DNA of 32,000 bases, from the NCBI RefSeq assembly GCF_000092105.1, contig NC_014148.1, forward strand, positions 1,050,001-1,082,000, read 5' to 3'. Positions 9,327 to 16,741 of the stretch are shown in pieces (position 1 is the first letter of the stretch; the number at the start of each line of letters is the position of its first letter). Source of the stretch: Planctopirus limnophila DSM 3776. GTDB lineage: Bacteria > Planctomycetota > Planctomycetia > Planctomycetales > Planctomycetaceae. Below the pieces are notes generated by a model. It saw nothing but the letters and a program-made list of their open reading frames with translations. It did no database searches and was not told the origin of the DNA. Both the position numbers and the translations under genes were made by a program.

Positions 9327-10223
9327 ATGGCTAACGCCAGACAATTGACTTCACTGGTCTCGAACAGCGCACTTTCTCGAGCGGAGAATCTGCGACTGGC
9401 TCCACGATTCCGCAAAACCAACCGCATGCGGGGTGAACATCTGGCTGGTCGCGGTGGTTCAAGTACCGAGTTTGAAGACTTTCGAGATTACAGCCCTGGT
9501 GATGACATCCGGTATGTCGACTGGAATATCTTTGCCCGTCTGCATCGCCCTTATCTGAAACTGTACCGACACGAAGAAGAAATGCATGTTGTCATCCTGC
9601 TGGATGCTTCCAGTTCGATGAAGTTTGGCGAAAAGTTTGATCGAGCCCGGCAGGCTGCCGCACTTCTGGCCATGATGGGGCTCATGAATATGGAGCCAGT
9701 CTCGATCTACGCCTTGGGCAGCCGGAATGAGGCCACGCATCAGATTCGACGACTGCGCGGGAAAAGTTCTTTCCGCAAACTTTTTGAGTTTCTCGAAAAC
9801 CTGCCAGTTGGGGGTGATGCCGAGATTGACTTTACCATCGACGCTGCACTCCGGCAGCACTCGGGTCGCGGGGTGGTCATCTGCCTGTCAGACTTCCTGA
9901 CGTTTGGCCGAATTGATCAGGCCATCAGCCGGTTGTTTGGAGCTGGTCTGGAACCCTGGGCCATTCAGATTTTATCCAGCGACGAGCATAACCCTGAGTT
10001 AGAACAGGATGTTCGTTTTGTCGACTCCGAAACGGGAGAAACGCTGGATGTGACAGCCGGGGGAGATCTGTTGCGAATTTACGAGGAATACCGGTTGTCA
10101 CTCGAACGAGAACTGGAGCAGGTCTGTCGGCAACGTGGCGGGCGGTCGTTGTCATTCAACACCAGCCAAAGCGTGGACAACATCGTCTTCGATACACTCC
10201 TTCGTAAAGGCTGGGTGCGATGA
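9327..10223 (+). CDS. DUF58 domain-containing protein (vWA-like fold)
   Basis: FEDFRDYSPGDDIRYVDWNIFARLHRPYLKLY signature. VVILLDASSSM is a DxSxS MIDAS-like motif. The stop overlaps the next start (ATGA at 10220-10223). Confidence 0.9.
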   Translation: MANARQLTSLVSNSALSRAENLRLAPRFRKTNRMRGEHLAGRGGSSTEFEDFRDYSPGDDIRYVDWNIFARLHRPYLKLYRHEEEMHVVILLDASSSMKFGEKFDRARQAAALLAMMGLMNMEPVSIYALGSRNEATHQIRRLRGKSSFRKLFEFLENLPVGGDAEIDFTIDAALRQHSGRGVVICLSDFLTFGRIDQAISRLFGAGLEPWAIQILSSDEHNPELEQDVRFVDSETGETLDVTAGGDLLRIYEEYRLSLERELEQVCRQRGGRSLSFNTSQSVDNIVFDTLLRKGWVR

Positions 10224-12190
10224 GTTGGCCTGGCTTTGCATCACTTTCAGCGGCCTGGTATCTGCTGCTCCTGGCACCGCTGATCCTGTTTTATTTTCTC
10301 AAGCTGCGCCGACCGAGAGTCGAGATCCCTTCGTTGGCCTTATGGCAGCAGGTGGTTCGCGATTCTCGCGTCAACTCTCCGTTTCAAAGGTTCCAAAGAA
10401 ACCTTTTGCTGCTGGCACAGATTCTGTTGCTGTTGGCTTTGATACTGGCAGCCATGCAGCCCTTCTGGCCGGCTCGTTCGCAAACCGCACGGTATCTGCC
10501 TGTGATTATTGATATCTCGGCCAGCATGGAAGGTGTGGAGAAAGCGGGTGGCCAGACCAGACTGCAACTGGCGAAACAGGAAGTGACCAAACTGATCGAT
10601 GGTCTTATGGCCGATCAGAAAATCAGCCTGATTGCCGCCTCTGACTCGGCCCGTCGATTGACGGATTTCACGAATGATCAACGCATCCTCAAAGCAGCAC
10701 TTGATCAACTGACGATTTCTGAATCGACAAGTCAGTTGGAAGATGCCTTCCGCATGTCGATCGCTTTGGCACGCACTGTGCCTGTCGAGACGGTTGTCCT
10801 TTTCAGTGATGGAAATGTCCCTCCAGAATTCGATCTGGAGCTTCCTTTTCGAGTGAGCTTTCAGAAAGTCCCAGCGGCAACGTCGAATGTGGGGATCACC
10901 GAATTCAATGCCAGAAAATCACGCGAGAACTGGGAGGTCTTTGCCCGGGTCGAGGCTTCGTCAAAATTTGCCGGGCTCACTCAAGTTGAATTCTTCGAGA
11001 ATGGAGAACTCCTGAGCAGTGAGTCGATTTCATTGGCTGGCGGATCCGCAGAGCGACTGATTTTTCGCACTTCTTCGCCAGAAAGTACGGAGGTGGCTCT
11101 GCGCCTTGTTCCGGATGGTGTGGATGCGGTTGGCAGTGATAATGAAGCTTTTCTCGTGACTCCGCAGGTCAGGCCACTGAGTATCTATTGCCCTCCCGAA
11201 CTGACGACGTTTCGTCATGCCCTGGCTGCCATGAAAGACGTGGTTGTCTTTCCCGCTGAAGGGGCTGCGACACCATCCTCAGTGGATCTTGTGATTTCTA
11301 ATCAAGTGGCTGATGCCGAACGTGATGCGCGGGTCATTTTGACCGTGGGTTTGGTTCCCGCCGAGCTGGAATCATTTATTTCGACGGAAGAAGTGGCCAC
11401 AGGTTCGGGATTGGCAGAGGTCACGGACTGGTTAAGGACAGATCCTCTCCTGAGGCATGTGCAGCTTTTAGATGTGCAGATTGGCGGGGCACCGCAATTG
11501 AAGGAAGGTGAGTCCGACCGCACCATTGAAGCGGCAGGTTTTCAGGTGGTAGCGACATCCACAGGAGGCCCGCTGGTTGTGTCGAGGCCCTCGGGGGCAC
11601 AGCAGCGCTATCATATTTTGTTTCCGATGGAACGTTCGACGCTGCCCTTCCGTGTCGGGTTTCCCATCCTCGTGGCCAATGCCGTTGATCTGGCTCAGAA
11701 TCTGGCAGGCTTGAATGAAACCAAAGCACTCCGGACGGGTGTCTTCCCCCCGTTGACACTTCAGCCGGAGACCCGCTATCGCATTGTGGGGCCGGTCGAA
11801 CCGGAGTGGAAACTGGCTGCAGGGAGTTCGTTACGATTAAGCCCGATGGCTGCCAATGGTCGCCAGCGCACCACAGCGCGAACCACAGAATTGACGACAG
11901 ATGCCAACGGACAACTGGCAGGTGTGGCAGCACCGGCTGTGGGTGTCTACCAGATTTTTGATGGTGGAACTCTCGTCAAGCAGATCGGCGTAGCGCTTCA
12001 GAGTGTGCAGGAGACATCTCTGTTCGTGCAGCAGGACTTAAGATTTTCAGAAGCCAAAGTTTCCGCAGCCGATGAGAAACTGGCTGTCGAAACACCACTC
12101 TGGCGCTGGTTTGCCTGGGCAGCGCTGCTTTTTCTGCTCTGGGAATGGTGGCTGTTCCAGAAACCAGCACTGCCTCTCAAACGTGCTTAG
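10220..12190 (+). CDS. BatA-like membrane protein: aerotolerance-regulator N-terminal double-TM domain + vWA domain + C-terminal TM anchor
   Basis: The N-terminus AWYLLLLAPLILFYFLKLRRPRVEIPSLALWQ matches the BatA_N pattern. LPVIIDISASM is a DxSxS motif. The C-terminal helix is WFAWAALLFLLWEWWLF. Translationally coupled to the DUF58 gene. Confidence 0.9.
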   Translation: MSWPGFASLSAAWYLLLLAPLILFYFLKLRRPRVEIPSLALWQQVVRDSRVNSPFQRFQRNLLLLAQILLLLALILAAMQPFWPARSQTARYLPVIIDISASMEGVEKAGGQTRLQLAKQEVTKLIDGLMADQKISLIAASDSARRLTDFTNDQRILKAALDQLTISESTSQLEDAFRMSIALARTVPVETVVLFSDGNVPPEFDLELPFRVSFQKVPAATSNVGITEFNARKSRENWEVFARVEASSKFAGLTQVEFFENGELLSSESISLAGGSAERLIFRTSSPESTEVALRLVPDGVDAVGSDNEAFLVTPQVRPLSIYCPPELTTFRHALAAMKDVVVFPAEGAATPSSVDLVISNQVADAERDARVILTVGLVPAELESFISTEEVATGSGLAEVTDWLRTDPLLRHVQLLDVQIGGAPQLKEGESDRTIEAAGFQVVATSTGGPLVVSRPSGAQQRYHILFPMERSTLPFRVGFPILVANAVDLAQNLAGLNETKALRTGVFPPLTLQPETRYRIVGPVEPEWKLAAGSSLRLSPMAANGRQRTTARTTELTTDANGQLAGVAAPAVGVYQIFDGGTLVKQIGVALQSVQETSLFVQQDLRFSEAKVSAADEKLAVETPLWRWFAWAALLFLLWEWWLFQKPALPLKRA

Positions 12191-12213
12191 TTTGATCAAG
12201 ACCTCCCCTGTTT

Positions 12214-12234
12214 GTGCCATGCTTGCGGCTCTGA
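12214..12234 (-). repeat. inverted copy (21-nt core) of the TCAGAGCCGCAAGCATGGCAC element
   Basis: GTGCCATGCTTGCGGCTCTGA is the exact reverse complement of 15822-15842 and differs at one position from 13630-13650. Confidence 0.85.
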
Positions 12235-12247
12235 GCAAGCATGTTTT
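12218..12247 (+). terminator. rho-independent terminator of the BatA-like gene
   Basis: CATGCTTGC-ggctctga-GCAAGCATG forms a perfect 9-bp stem with an 8-nt loop, followed by TTTT. It begins 28 nt after the stop at 12190. Confidence 0.7.
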
Positions 12248-12684
12248 CGCATTCCACACACCCTGTAAATGACCACGCCCTTACGCAAAGCCTCCAGGGT
12301 CGTGCCACCCAAAACAAAGTCAAGTCTGGGGGCAGGGCCTGCGCATCGCGTGGCTTCTTGTTGTCGCGGAACTGCACGACAACCCGGACACAAGTTGGCC
12401 GGGCTACCCGTTAAGAATTTCCGGAAAACAGCTTCTCCCGCGTGAATGACTGATGGCCGAGGTCGATAGAATTTTCAACTTTTCCGCATGCGGCCTGCAT
12501 GAAAGTCAGCTTGTTAAACAATCTGACAGTTCTGTTGTGTCTCTGCCGATAGTTTTGAGCAGGCGGTGAATCTTGAAGGCCTGTGATTTCATCAGGTTCG
12601 GACTGTCTTCGGCAGAAATTGCCGCTGGATCGATGAGGCCTGTTCAAGTGAGTTGGCAGCGCGTCTCTGCAGTGAGTGACTGGA

Positions 12685-13560
12685 ATGCCCCTAAACTCCT
12701 TACGATGGACAGCATTCACGCTCGCTCTGCTGAGTCTGGCGGGTTGGCCTGACTGTGCGTCAGCTCAGGAAGCGGGTTTTCTGGATCGCTCTCTGCTGGC
12801 AGATCCGTCGATCGTTTTCAGTCCAACGTCTGGCGATGAAATCGAAACCGATCGCGACTCATTTACACCGGCAACGACAGTGGTGGGCCACCACAAAACG
12901 ATTGTCGAAGCGGCTTACTCGTTCATTGATAATCCCTCCAGCCGGGAGACACACAGTTTCCCGGAATTGCTGGTTCGATATGGCGTGAGCGACCGCATTG
13001 AAATCCGGCTGGGATGGAACTACGAGACGGGTGGTGGCGGTTCCGTCAGTGGGAATTCTTCGTTCATCGAAGAAGAACCATTGGTTGATGAGATCGAGAA
13101 CGACGGAGATCTGCTCTATGGATTGAAGCTGTTTGTGAATGAACAGGCCGACTGGCTGCCTCAATCCTCGCTTATTGTGCAGGCCAATACTCCGACATCC
13201 GGGAGTCTGAATACGACACAATTCACACTCTGCTATGTGGTGGGTTGGGAATTGCCGAATGCGTGGACGATTGACGCCGCCATGCGCTATTCAGCCACCG
13301 CCGAAGAGGAAGATCATTTCAATCTGTGGGCTCCGTCTGTGGTGCTCAAAGTTCCTGTCGGAACAAAATATAAAGCCCATATCGAATACTTTGGCATCTT
13401 CTCGGATCAGCAGGAGACAGCGCAGACCTCACAATACATCAGCCCGGGAATCCACTATCTCATCACACCAGATCTGGAAATCGGAATTCGTGTGGGCTGG
13501 GGACTCAACAGCGACTCAGCACGATTCTTCTCGAATGTCGGTGCCGGCTGGCGATTCTAG
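12685..13560 (+). CDS. outer-membrane beta-barrel protein, MetA-pathway-of-phenol-degradation-like transporter family
   Basis: Signal peptide LRWTAFTLALLSLAGWPDCASAQ. ETDRDSFTPATTVVG..VEAAYSF motif. Alternating beta-strand pattern and a C-terminal GAGWRF with terminal Phe. The ATG is at 12685; a GTG at 12676 is an alternative start. Confidence 0.75.
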   Translation: MPLNSLRWTAFTLALLSLAGWPDCASAQEAGFLDRSLLADPSIVFSPTSGDEIETDRDSFTPATTVVGHHKTIVEAAYSFIDNPSSRETHSFPELLVRYGVSDRIEIRLGWNYETGGGGSVSGNSSFIEEEPLVDEIENDGDLLYGLKLFVNEQADWLPQSSLIVQANTPTSGSLNTTQFTLCYVVGWELPNAWTIDAAMRYSATAEEEDHFNLWAPSVVLKVPVGTKYKAHIEYFGIFSDQQETAQTSQYISPGIHYLITPDLEIGIRVGWGLNSDSARFFSNVGAGWRF

Positions 13561-13629
13561 TGAAAAGTAGGGCAGGCTCCCGCGTACTTTGCATCCAGCA
13601 CTTCTGTTCGATTGGCAAAGTCTGCTTGC

Positions 13630-13656
13630 TCAGAGCCGCAAGTATGGCACGGATCA
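13630..13656 (+). repeat. left 27-nt direct repeat flanking the low-GC islet (attL-like)
   Basis: TCAGAGCCGCAAGTATGGCACGGATCA is 25/27 identical to 15822-15848 in the same orientation. Preceded by TGCTTGC, which pairs with GCAAGTA to form a hairpin. Confidence 0.85.
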
Positions 13657-13698
13657 CCGAGAGTTTTGAACTCCTCATCTCCCTACCGCCCAACTAAT

Positions 13699-14052
13699 TC
13701 ACCTACTCCTCTCGGGGGAAATCTCTAAATCACCAAGTGCCTCGTAAATGGAAACATATCGCGGTCGAAGTTCCACCGCCTTTGCAAGCATCTGCTCAGG
13801 ATCTCTAGTATCCGCCATAAACACTGACGGATCAGGAAGAAAATCTAGAGGTTTGACTTTTTCGTCAAAATAGCAAAGCATCTCTTTCTTGATCGTCACA
13901 GGTAAGCCGTCAAGTATCTCTGTCGCAGAAGTGTCGCGACGATGCACAAGTTTAAAAACAATATTCTCAGCACATTGCCTTTTTGTGATATTCCCTTCTT
14001 CAAAGCCATTAACAAGAACACCCCAAGTCGCGTAGCCCTTGTCTGATTCCAT
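13699..14052 (-). CDS. hypothetical small acidic protein (117 aa), islet gene 2
   Basis: The ATG at 14052 is preceded by GGAGAG 5 nt upstream (minus strand ..ATAGGAGAGTATCAATG). MESDKGYATWGVLVNGFEEG... No family recognised. The tracked ORF start at 14079 adds 9 codons. Confidence 0.6.
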   Translation of the reverse strand: MESDKGYATWGVLVNGFEEGNITKRQCAENIVFKLVHRRDTSATEILDGLPVTIKKEMLCYFDEKVKPLDFLPDPSVFMADTRDPEQMLAKAVELRPRYVSIYEALGDLEISPERSR

Positions 14053-14425
14053 TGATACTCTCCTATAAATTCCGACCACGCATCTATTGCGCGAGTTATA
14101 AAACGGAAGTGTCTCCTCATTGAGGCAGGCAAAAACCAGGCTCTTCGCAATACTTCGAGCATGCAGAACAACACACGGCAGTGTACCGCCGGATGACCCC
14201 GGTTGAAATTCTTTTTTCTACCGGGGCGGTGAGGACACAGAAGGATGGACGGCTTGCCTGATTCAGTTGAATATGAACTCTTTTTCAAATTCACCGGAGG
14301 GAACTTCTGCCGACAGTGCCTCCTTTATCACGACACACAAGTAGCTTGCGACACTCAACCTGTGCTACCGCGCGATACCAAGCATTTTTTTCTTAAGACA
14401 GCAGCAGCATTGCGCAGCCGTCATT

Positions 14426-15703
14426 TCAGTAACCTAATCTTCGACTCCATAGAAGGCGAACGAGAAAAATTGAACTCTCACACATTGCGGATATAGCGGC
14501 TGCATAGAGGATTACAAAGCCCTCGTCACGCGTTGGATGGTCTGCTGCCCACTTAAGATATGGCCAACCGCAAAGTAGTCCAAGCAAGACAATGAGAGAC
14601 ACGCCAATACCTGGAATCGACCATGACTTGACTTGATGGAAATAACTGGTGGCGCCGTGTGCTGTAACCACTTTTGCTCGTAATGAATAGAGAGCCATTC
14701 GAACTTTGAGGAAATTATTAATCCCAAGAAAATCCACAATACGCTGCTCTTGAATTTCGCACACTTGTGGGAATTTTGCTCTTATGTTTGCCCAGCGTAG
14801 AAGTTGCAACTTCTCAACTAAGTGAGTTAATGATTTGACGTAATCTATATACTCTAGCTGAAAAGTTGTTAGCACAAACGGTGCCCAGAGAACATTTCGT
14901 GCATGTTCTCGCAATTCTTCTTGAAGGTAGTGCTCCGAATCTAGCGCCAATTTGATTTTTGAAACTGCTTCGTTGAGTGAAAGTTCTTGTGGAATTTCAA
15001 GGTGCCCGCTTGACTTGTACTTTTCAAAGGACTCCAAGAACCAGATTGATCCATTGGTCCCATAACCATACTCAACAATTGCGCCTCCGGAGGAGCGGAG
15101 TTTATCAACAGCTCTAAGGACGCAATTCGCACATATAACGGCTTCGTGCAGAAAGCGAATCTGCTCCAGTTGAACACCCGTGTGATTGTGGTGACTAAAG
15201 GGGGAGTGTGAGATTTGGTACCATGCGCCGTCCCATTCGGGGCGGTATACGTACCAACCATTGTTTGTCTCTCTTGGATCATACTGTTTGAAGAGTAGTG
15301 TTGCCACTCCTGGTCGTTGCAGCGTTCGGAGGCGATATTTGGAGCTCTTTAATTTGTGTCTTGTTGGTCCACTAGCGAAGAACTTCGAGAAGAAGGTAGA
15401 CACAGACGTTGTTATTTCAGTGTACAAAGTTGAGAGAATGTCTGATCCATCGTAAGAAGTGAGGCTGACGGTTGTACCAATAAGTAAAACGCCTACGACA
15501 AGCGCGAGAACTTGGCCCAGAAACTGAATTGAGTCTTCGAGGTCGGCTGCTGTAACGTTGGACGGTAGCCATTGTTTAAGGCCTAGGTACATTGCTATGA
15601 AGACGAAGATAGTAAGTATATGCACTAAAGCAGGGTGAGGCGATAGTGGGCTTTTGTGTAGAAGTTTTCGAAAGAATGGTCTTTTCATGTTACTTGGTGG
15701 CAT
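14426..15703 (-). CDS. hypothetical 4-TM membrane protein with ~280-aa soluble central domain, islet gene 1
   Basis: Long ORF in an AT-rich context. Numbering on the 441-aa tracked ORF: TM helices at about 41-58, 77-97, 379-399 and 411-435, and a His-rich patch HSPFSHHNH at 182-190. The start is ambiguous: TTG at 15751, ATG at 15703 or ATG at 15688. No family recognised. Confidence 0.7.
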   Translation of the reverse strand: MPPSNMKRPFFRKLLHKSPLSPHPALVHILTIFVFIAMYLGLKQWLPSNVTAADLEDSIQFLGQVLALVVGVLLIGTTVSLTSYDGSDILSTLYTEITTSVSTFFSKFFASGPTRHKLKSSKYRLRTLQRPGVATLLFKQYDPRETNNGWYVYRPEWDGAWYQISHSPFSHHNHTGVQLEQIRFLHEAVICANCVLRAVDKLRSSGGAIVEYGYGTNGSIWFLESFEKYKSSGHLEIPQELSLNEAVSKIKLALDSEHYLQEELREHARNVLWAPFVLTTFQLEYIDYVKSLTHLVEKLQLLRWANIRAKFPQVCEIQEQRIVDFLGINNFLKVRMALYSLRAKVVTAHGATSYFHQVKSWSIPGIGVSLIVLLGLLCGWPYLKWAADHPTRDEGFVILYAAAISAMCESSIFLVRLLWSRRLGY

Positions 15704-15821
15704 TTGATGTTTTTGTTTTCTGTAGTAAGTAGTTGATGAGTAGCCTCTCAACTGCCTTGATTAGACTTTTTGCATCTCATTGGCATTCGGCTCAGTTGAT
15801 CCTTTGGCACATTATGGCTCG

Positions 15822-15848
15822 TCAGAGCCGCAAGCATGGCACGGATTA
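15822..15848 (+). repeat. right 27-nt direct repeat flanking the low-GC islet (attR-like)
   Basis: TCAGAGCCGCAAGCATGGCACGGATTA. The sequence to its left (TATGGCTCG) does not match the left flank of the 13630 copy. Confidence 0.85.
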
Positions 15849-15893
15849 ATGGCTGCTGTGTTGCCCAGGTTGATCCCCAATAGCCCATCGAGC

Positions 15894-16556
15894 TCAACTC
15901 GTCTTCTTCTGGAAGAACGTGGGTTCGGTGCCGGCGCGGAGGCGGGCGAGGTTGGATTTGTGGCGGTAGACAATGAGGATGGACAAGACGATCGCCATGA
16001 TCGCCTGCGGAGTGGTCGCTCCTTGAAGACCGTCTGATTGCCGGAACGCCAAAGGAACCTGCCAGCAGATCAATTCAAACGCCAGGTATCCCGCCAGTGC
16101 CATGAGCGAACTGAGCGAAACAATCTTGTTGATTGCGAAGCTGCCAAAGAAGCAGACGGTCGCGACAAGCAATCCCCAGGGAGAAGCCGCTCCGAGAGCT
16201 CCCAGTGAAGTCGCAATCCCTTTGCCACCTTTAAAGCCGAGCCAGATCGGGAACATGTGACCGATGACTGTCGTCATGGCCGACATGGGAATCACCCACT
16301 CGCTGGCTGGGCCTGTATCGCCTCCCAAACCAACAATCCCCGGAAGAAAGAGCGGGGGCAAGTAGCCTTTGAGGGCATCGAGTACAAGGACCACCAGCCC
16401 CCACTTTTTGCCGAGTGAGCGACTGACATTGGTGGCACCAATGTTGCCACTCCCCTCCTGGCGAATATCAATCCCGCGAATAACCCGCGCCAGCAGCAAT
16501 CCGAAAGGGATCGAACCTGCCAGATAGCTGGCCACAATCAGTAACACCCAGGGCAT
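15894..16556 (-). CDS. plsY: glycerol-3-phosphate acyltransferase PlsY (acyl-phosphate dependent)
   Basis: YLAGSIPFGLLLAR, GSGNIGATNV and FKGGKGIATSLG motifs. 220 aa and multi-TM. Confidence 0.95.
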   Translation of the reverse strand: MPWVLLIVASYLAGSIPFGLLLARVIRGIDIRQEGSGNIGATNVSRSLGKKWGLVVLVLDALKGYLPPLFLPGIVGLGGDTGPASEWVIPMSAMTTVIGHMFPIWLGFKGGKGIATSLGALGAASPWGLLVATVCFFGSFAINKIVSLSSLMALAGYLAFELICWQVPLAFRQSDGLQGATTPQAIMAIVLSILIVYRHKSNLARLRAGTEPTFFQKKTS

Positions 16557-16741
16557 GAACCATCTTCCCCAACAAAAGTCGGACCGGCAGAACCATCTCT
16601 ACATCAAGCAGCAGGAAAGTACAAAGTCCGGCGGAGGATGGAAACATCAGGGGGGAGAAATGCCATTCTGTTGCCATGATCGAACTCTGCATGCCATGAT
16701 TCGATGATGAACTATCGGGAGATAGTTTTTCCCTGTGAAGA

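Follow-up and report, generated by a model that had tools for sequence, protein, structure and literature searches.

The minimal mobile elements (MMEs) of Neisseria are different whole-gene cassettes that lie, from strain to strain, between the same conserved genes and carry no mobility genes. Repetitive extragenic palindromes (REPs) and the REP-associated tyrosine transposases (RAYTs) constitute another described system, in which the function of the repeats is still debated; in Planctomycetota, the biology of mobile elements has been little studied. Two large REP superfamilies are defined by a tag, GTAG or CGTC, that is left unpaired at one end (PMC3733652). Finally, Imm11 and SMI1_KNR4 have been described as families of immunity proteins to polymorphic nuclease toxins, typical of polyimmunity loci, planctomycetes included (PMC3482391). 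Here, we report the analysis of 32,000 nt of Planctopirus limnophila DSM 3776 (NC_014148.1, positions 1,050,001 to 1,082,000; this whole stretch is called the window below), in which two 27-nt direct repeats bracket two minus-strand open reading frames (ORFs), ORF-A (Plim_0828) and ORF-B (Plim_0826), lodged between two convergent genes, plsY and an outer-membrane barrel gene. We propose, with a probability of roughly 0.6, that P. limnophila has here its own allele of a strain-variable slot bounded by REP-type units, whose cargo is turned over by recombination and is probably devoted to immunity or defence. The repeats themselves are REP-type units of a cassette slot and not the att scars of one insertion.

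The first line of evidence comes from the same slot in relatives. Clustering of plsY at a minimum of 90% identity gave six further alleles. A previous reading of the window, made from its letters alone (the sequence-only reading), had predicted that relatives would show empty sites with a single repeat copy, and we found them in the metagenome-assembled genome (MAG) D1_MAG_00040 (L012) and in a second relative (L050). In these empty alleles the plsY stop codon is followed by ~50 nt, one complete hairpin, called H hereafter, ~65 nt that include a GC-rich hairpin, and the barrel gene. Both flanking genes are on one contig in L050, and the contig of L012 reaches only the last codons of the barrel gene. 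The P. limnophila slot corresponds to the spacer between convergent plsY and barrel genes, which measures ~150 nt when empty.

Other relatives carry other cargo at this place. In Planctopirus ephydatiae (L015), a 188-aa Imm11 gene is followed by a motif that we call ‘pre’ (AGGAGTTCAAAACTCTTGGTGAT) with a full H, and then by the barrel gene. In Planctopirus hydrillae (L016), a full unit comes first, then that Imm11 gene (at 79% nucleotide identity), and ‘pre’ with a truncated H at the contig end. In the metagenomic contig VFQR01000909 (L017, GCA_006365015.1), we found unit 1, a 173-aa P-loop gene, a homolog of ORF-B, and ‘pre’ with unit 2, after which come a 172-aa SMI1_KNR4/SUKH gene, a partial unit and the barrel gene. 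The same ‘pre’ and hairpin therefore follow different cargo in these three alleles. Imm11 was assigned by Pfam with 33 bits (cutoff 22.1) and SMI1_KNR4/SUKH with 41.8 bits (cutoff 25.4). In P. limnophila, P. hydrillae and VFQR, the cargo has a unit containing H on either side, the two in direct orientation, and every cargo gene in all alleles reads in the plsY direction. No repeat unit separates ORF-A from ORF-B, nor the P-loop gene from the ORF-B homolog. Since the two-unit state occurs with differing cargo in at least three species, and since unit 1 looks, from its alignment, orthologous between P. limnophila and P. hydrillae, the locus looks like a long-lived cassette slot and not like one site-specific insertion. 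More distant plsY relatives (82-83% identity; L011, L013 and L014) are not syntenic and are uninformative.

The composition of the interval agrees with an accessory origin. Between the repeats (13657-15821) the GC content is 0.455, against 0.537 in the remaining window, and no other stretch of 2165 nt in the window is as low; the tetranucleotide deviation (0.395, for a mean of 0.201 and a standard deviation of 0.043) is also the window maximum. GC at third codon positions is 0.43 for ORF-A and 0.41 for ORF-B; plsY reaches 0.67 and the barrel gene 0.57. The low GC that had been counted by hand is thereby borne out, and the proposal of horizontally acquired accessory DNA is upheld by the polymorphic site, the empty alleles in relatives and the foreign composition. 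Moreover, Pfam, PADLOC and NCBIfam confirmed that the cargo consists of two minus-strand ORFs of no recognised family, and neither Pfam nor NCBIfam detected an integrase or transposase in it.

We then considered what the repeats are. The two 27-mers lie at 13630-13656 (left) and 15822-15848 (right), in the same orientation and 2192 nt apart from start to start, with 25/27 identities, exactly as the sequence-only reading had described them; no such pair appeared in 100 dinucleotide-preserving shuffles. They are the best-conserved stretch of a spacer unit of ~110 nt that is present twice, and the core of this unit is H, a hairpin with a 9-bp stem and an 8-nt loop. The right repeat consists of the first 27 nt of unit 1, that is the 5′ flank, the left arm and the loop GGCTCTGA; the right arm of this hairpin has decayed and reads CGAGCCATA in place of GCAAGCATG. 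In unit 2, the ‘pre’ motif AGGAGTTCAAAACTCTCGGTGAT (13653-13675) adjoins a full hairpin, CCGTGCCATACTTGC-GGCTCTGA-GCAAGCAGA (13621-13652). Read on the minus strand from 13652 down to 13621, the left copy gives CCGTGCC-CATACTTGC-GGCTCTGA-GCAAGCAGA, a complete hairpin, and the 3′ flank of the unit contains a decayed GC-rich hairpin. A full hairpin is indeed found in the left copy only, as had been noticed. The sequence to the left of the right copy had been called unrelated, which did not hold: alignment with the sister genomes identifies it as a diverged full unit of ~110 nt, whose best alignment is to P. hydrillae unit 1, with 67 matches in 87 columns and a common insertion of ~25 nt.

The similarity of the two P. 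limnophila repeats extends over 67 nt at 73%, with 24 matches in the 42 positions outside the 27-mer (binomial P ~4e-5, a value to be read knowing that the extension itself was selected for). What is truly repeated is the entire spacer unit, in which near-identity was kept over no more than the first 27 nt and stops directly past the loop; this explains the extension. In VFQR, units 1 and 2 are 90% identical over 71 nt, so that the duplication there reaches beyond the hairpin. The gapped identities of the 3′ flanks of the units are too dependent on gap placement for a firm dating of the duplication. Folding of whole units yielded three separate small hairpins and a stability that was not above that of shuffled sequences (z between -1.8 and +1.0); the local hairpins alone can be taken as meaningful.

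H is a dispersed hairpin of the REP type, of which a genome has tens of copies. A scan of representative genomes for its exact 21-nt core gave four places, in P. hydrillae and a Planctomyces MAG, each with one copy and none with a protein in common with the window. A slightly degenerate 26-nt pattern retrieved at least 34 near-identical copies from 30 metagenome stretches; ~26 contigs of one Planctopirus-containing assembly, VFQR01, account for 28 of them. All three copies of the window are intergenic. The third, inverted relative to the other two, reads CATGCTTGC-GGCTCTGA-GCAAGCATG and then TTTTCG; it stands 22 nt past the stop of a BatA/VWA gene (10220-12190) and is kept at the orthologous place in P. 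ephydatiae and VFQR. According to our reading of the listing, ~21 of the 30 evaluable copies lie at most ~216 nt downstream of a co-oriented gene, typically between convergent genes. Most copies are singletons behind core genes, and partial copies of the left arm adjoin several of them. Neither a GTAG nor a CGTC tag is found on H; its conserved 5′ sequence is (N)GTGCC. As most copies have no T-run after them, H was not called by our terminator scan (12100-16700). That the 27-mer might be an element scattered through intergenic regions had been set in advance as a ground for regarding its flanking copies as coincidental. The first part stood, with a dispersed repeat in at least 34 copies. The second did not: the flanking copies are not coincidental, because the duplication continues into spacer sequence specific to this locus.

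In addition, one H copy of P. hydrillae (L009, 342-850) is split in its loop by an insert of ~460 nt that resembles a miniature inverted-repeat transposable element (MITE), with ends in inverted orientation (CTGTCCATTACATACATC / GATGTGTGTAATAGACAG) and a target duplication of 10 nt, CGGCTCTGAG. Positions 12301-12409 of the window are 76% identical to part of this insert, including a palindrome of the GGTGGCCCGGCC type.

Direct pairs of H that bracket genes recur at other loci. On VFQR01002683 (L023, 2361-4133), two direct copies 1772 nt apart, with a common ‘pre’-like flank (ATTCAAAATTCT), enclose a lower-GC gene of 390 aa with no family match. A second direct pair has its copies 1357 nt apart (L029). 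Behind a SNF-family transporter gene on VFQR01001914 (L045, 10990-14356), four to five composite units of ~250 nt, three of them with H, separate low-GC ORFs of 146, 130 and 196 aa that belong to no Pfam family; two of these ORFs have the same orientation as the upstream transporter gene and one the opposite orientation, and the whole resembles a cassette array. Altogether, at least six direct pairs of H within 3 kb were seen, and by our own estimate ~0.7 would be expected for ~35 random copies in 5.4 Mb. We also observed, on VFQR01024667 (L026, 846-1697), a 284-aa CAP12/Pycsar-type TIR gene (PADLOC PDC-S35; GC 0.43) that adjoins an H copy and a diverged inverted copy.

These observations can be brought together in a simple scheme. 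Cargo would be gained when a DNA circle or fragment that carries cargo and a unit recombines with the resident unit, in a Campbell-type event that yields unit-cargo-unit. It would be lost when recombination between units 1 and 2 deletes it and leaves a one-hairpin site such as that of the empty alleles, and it could be swapped likewise, by recombination at the repeated units. Host homologous recombination would be the simplest candidate for the enzymatic activity, a trans-acting recombinase being possible and a hairpin-specific enzyme a possible helper. The payload would probably have a conflict role, in immunity or defence, the status of ORF-B being uncertain.

Several points weigh against this scheme. 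First, neither a recombination intermediate nor an enzyme was seen, and the 472 kb of DNA compared yielded no cassette common to two different H loci. Second, the junctions are not uniform: unit 1, on the plsY side, is wholly absent from P. ephydatiae, and the SUKH cassette of VFQR is bounded by the GC-rich hairpin and not by H, so that there is no single crossover point. Third, the one bona fide RAYT gene that we found beside an H copy (VFQQ010067699, L025, 820-1566; NF047646, 116.9 bits, cutoff 80) is flanked by its own inverted repeats of ~55 nt, of the GGTGGCCCAGACGT type, each with a CCCAGAC...GTCTGGG hairpin; the H copy is 160 nt away, just outside the upstream inverted repeat, and the contig ends at it. 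Fourth, the cargo of P. limnophila itself matches no immunity or defence family in Pfam, PADLOC or NCBIfam and no known fold, and ORF-B bears no sign of purifying selection over its 14 differences from the VFQR homolog. Finally, the nucleotide identity of plsY to P. limnophila is higher for the empty alleles (97% and 96.4%) than for P. hydrillae and VFQR (94.4%); together with the match between the P. limnophila and P. hydrillae units 1, this is compatible with either direction, insertion or deletion. The two-unit slot may be ancient, the empty sites having lost their cargo later through recombination between units, or plsY, a single gene, may not reflect the species tree well.

Enzyme-driven cassettes of an integron-like kind, in which the H units would serve as sites for a recombinase acting in trans (a RAYT/Y1 HUH enzyme or an unlinked integrase) that excises and inserts cassettes of one gene at many H sites, are an alternative that we hold to be unlikely. 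Co-oriented cassettes separated by hairpin units, the array of three small low-GC ORFs between composite units on VFQR01001914, the excess of direct H pairs within 3 kb, the partial left-arm copies and the RAYT that adjoins an H copy are all in keeping with it, but neither unit 1 nor unit 2 nor the VFQR unit 2 has a pair of attC core motifs (GTTRRRY with RYYYAAC), no IntI is encoded nearby and H copies mostly occur singly behind core genes. The private inverted repeats of the RAYT, the variable junctions and the lack of a cassette common to the H loci in the 472 kb compared also speak against it. A more far-reaching version would be a genus-wide, integrase-free cassette system at H units, served by a RAYT-type Y1 or other trans enzyme, that shuffles genes for immunity or defence, one at a time, at many loci behind core genes and of which ORF-A would be a new membrane-embedded effector; we regard this as speculative and improbable.

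The sequence-only reading had seen in the 27-mers the pattern expected of attL/attR. One rival reading is the remnant of a larger, integrase-borne genomic island that integrated site-specifically into the hairpin, with the 27-mers as its attL/attR core, and from which the integrase and most other genes were later deleted. Direct repeats around DNA of foreign composition, empty sites with one copy and a near-identity that ends directly past the loop are what such a remnant would leave; the 27-mers nevertheless come from a hairpin family of at least 34 copies, dispersed over intergenic DNA, and not from a unique att site, and the right copy is a diverged full unit and not a clean half-site. Moreover, different small cargoes occupy one slot with differing junction positions, and none of the four occupied alleles contains an integrase or a fragment of one. 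The search for an integrase or other recombinase was also negative over ~10 kb on either side in P. limnophila, P. ephydatiae and VFQR and over ~10 kb on the plsY side in P. hydrillae, and no tRNA or tmRNA was found in the whole window. Because the junction positions vary and there is no recombinase, single site-specific integration is disfavoured, and we consider an island remnant quite improbable. A chance placement of two independent REP copies around native genes with a gene-specific low GC, which the habit of H to follow genes in their own orientation could produce behind any co-oriented transcription units, has very little left to recommend it, because it is largely refuted by the empty sites in the closest relatives and the other cargo in further ones; the duplicated locus-specific spacer, the most extreme composition of the window and the scattered relatives of ORF-A also speak against it.

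Other candidates were tried and rejected. An insertion sequence, a transposon or a MITE would not fit a locus with no transposase, with direct and not inverted ends and with a duplication of 27 to ~110 nt. A Xer/dif-type site (28 nt, as in integrative mobile elements exploiting Xer (IMEX) or pdif modules) was set aside because the 27-mer is multi-copy and has no 11-6-11 palindrome. Nothing supports a hammerhead-like CUGAnGA at the right copy.

Turning to the cargo of the proposed REP-bounded slot, we examined ORF-A and ORF-B (Table 1). The public start sites of ORF-A (region 14426-15751) are inconsistent and give proteins of 388, 293 and 441 aa. Most plausibly, ORF-A encodes 420 aa, since the ATG at 15688 is the start favoured by the family alignment; most of the first transmembrane/hydrophobic helix is lost in the 388-aa GenBank call. 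The protein has four hydrophobic helices (~20-38, 56-76, 357-377 and 390-410), two at each end, around a helical domain of ~270 aa, and its AlphaFold2 (AF2) model is confident, with a predicted local distance difference test score (pLDDT) of 80.5 and a predicted template modelling score (pTM) of 0.73. In our first family alignment (18 sequences), R149, D153, H181, E182, H253, E257, E258 and H262 are invariant, among others; R149, D153, H181, E182 and E258 are among the conserved polar residues of the family. This four-transmembrane family is real but very rare: its 18 clusters come from a search of 5.8 billion, and a search of 1.84 billion proteins gave 55 representatives. ORF-A has no match in Pfam, PADLOC or NCBIfam, and Pfam was also empty for 28 family members; its profile has no match among Protein Data Bank (PDB) sequences, nor does Foldseek find one among PDB and BFVD folds.

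Relatives of ORF-A are scattered over unrelated contexts. On one metagenome contig (L004, 1658-11798), the homolog P0006 stands between PD-T7-5 (382 bits) and an AbiJ/Abi_C-like gene, in a defence island that also encodes GajA (776 bits), GajB (699 bits), a type II methyltransferase, a 127-aa zinc-ribbon protein and a polysaccharide lyase; the PADLOC matches around the homolog are to its neighbours only (GajA, GajB and PD-T7-5). The context of a further homolog (L005) was uninformative, and ARAGORN found no tRNA at the tRNA-like direct repeat there. In another organism (L006, 1212-4016), 53-nt repeats of a different REP-like family (core TAGCCGGCGTATTTATTGC, present in both orientations) separate an ORF-A homolog and two other small genes, which encode a membrane protein of 117 aa and a glyoxalase-like protein of 112 aa.

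The sequence-only reading had singled out this cargo as the most plausible home for a conflict module. Imm11 and SUKH in the sister slots and the ORF-A homolog in the Gabija/PD-T7-5 island lend this idea contextual support; the cargo of P. limnophila itself does not add to it, as the checks with PADLOC and Foldseek returned neither a defence family nor a fold for either protein (0 families in PADLOC-DB 2.0 at E<=1). ORF-A would probably be a membrane-embedded immunity or defence protein.

ORF-B is a different case. Its single homolog cluster in 5.8 billion is the VFQR copy (L017, 11794-12147), from which it differs at 14 of 354 nt, spread over the codon positions as 4/7/3 (pN/pS ~1.3). Its 317-nt leader is 88.7% identical in the two genomes and has no conserved ORF, while ORF-B itself is 96% identical. 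No Pfam, PADLOC or NCBIfam family matches ORF-B, and its AF2 model is marginal, with no Foldseek match; ORF-B may encode a small protein that evolves fast, or may be non-coding and not a gene. The module common with VFQR covers 13569-14369 of the window at 91.6% identity and starts 57 nt past the ORF-A stop. Since this shared module begins after ORF-A, and since the ORF-A homologs found elsewhere have no ORF-B beside them, ORF-A and ORF-B are separate modules; a two-gene ORF-A/ORF-B system was rejected on the latter ground.

Table 1. Features of the plsY-barrel interval of P. limnophila and its surroundings (window coordinates)
Feature	Position	Strand	Description
Third copy of H	12212-12243	+	Inverted relative to the other two
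Outer-membrane barrel gene	12676-13560	+	Pfam Phenol_MetA_deg; conserved flank, beside the slot in L015, L017 and L050
Unit 2, barrel side	13561-13675	-	‘Pre’ motif, full hairpin and 3′ flank reaching the barrel stop codon
ORF-B (Plim_0826)	13699-14052	-	117 aa, predicted all-helical, genus-restricted ORFan
ORF-A/ORF-B spacer	14053-14425	-	Module boundary and 317-nt ORF-B leader
ORF-A (Plim_0828)	14426-15688	-	420 aa; annotated as 388 aa
Unit 1, plsY side	15735-15848	-	~114 nt, diverged full copy of the spacer unit
plsY	15894-16556	-	Pfam G3P_acyltransf/PlsY; conserved flank

Searches for other signals in the window were negative. Rfam returned nothing over the whole window at gathering thresholds, and a scan of 12100-16700 for sigma-70 promoters and terminators gave no more sites than shuffled sequence.

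If REP-like units do mediate the gain and loss of single genes behind core genes, this would link REP/RAYT repeats with the assembly of small immunity and defence arrays, two subjects that are mostly treated apart, and would do so in Planctomycetota. If the slot is an ordinary recombination hotspot, it is well-documented yet unremarkable strain-variable accessory DNA. In either case, ORF-A can reasonably be considered for a new role in defence or immunity: its family is very rare and has no known relatives, its predicted structure is confident, and it lies in a variable slot here and in a Gabija/PD-T7-5 island elsewhere.

The closest described relatives of H are the palindromes of REPs and bacterial interspersed mosaic elements (BIMEs) with their RAYTs, and the dRS3 repeats and Neisseria intergenic mosaic elements (NIMEs). 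Like these, H is a short, conserved, multi-copy extragenic hairpin, usually 3′ of genes and often between convergent ones; its copies cluster and form mosaics with other motifs, one copy is the target of a MITE-like insertion, and a RAYT from the same population lies beside another. H differs from them in having no GTAG or CGTC tag, a conserved GTGCC before the stem and an invariant 8-nt loop. It is present in tens of copies and not in hundreds, the RAYT has different inverted repeats, and H bounds variable protein-coding cargo.

The cargo itself resembles that of polyimmunity loci (Zhang et al. 2012) and of the acquired interbacterial defence clusters of Bacteroidales, with stand-alone Imm11 and SUKH genes, in the sister alleles, that have no adjacent toxin, unrelated small genes side by side, strain-variable content and repeats between genes. 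However, the slot holds only one to three genes and has no associated recombinase, the two genes of P. limnophila match no immunity family, and any protective role is putative.

The arrangement between conserved genes shows the same pattern as the MMEs, and exchange through homologous recombination of the flanks is plausible here as well; in this slot, however, the cargo is also bounded by duplicated hairpin units, which would offer an internal route for loss and gain. With integron arrays and clusters of attC sites lacking integron-integrases (CALINs), the slot has in common co-oriented, promoter-poor, low-GC small ORFs of the ORFan type, and hairpin-forming repeats behind cargo, if not behind every gene. 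It differs from them in the absence of IntI and of the R′′/R′ core motifs of attC, in a simple 9-bp hairpin in place of the bulged attC structure, and in repeats that are mostly singletons behind core genes. Altogether, the slot resembles known kinds of variation: a hotspot flanked by core genes, REP-associated variation and a small polyimmunity locus.

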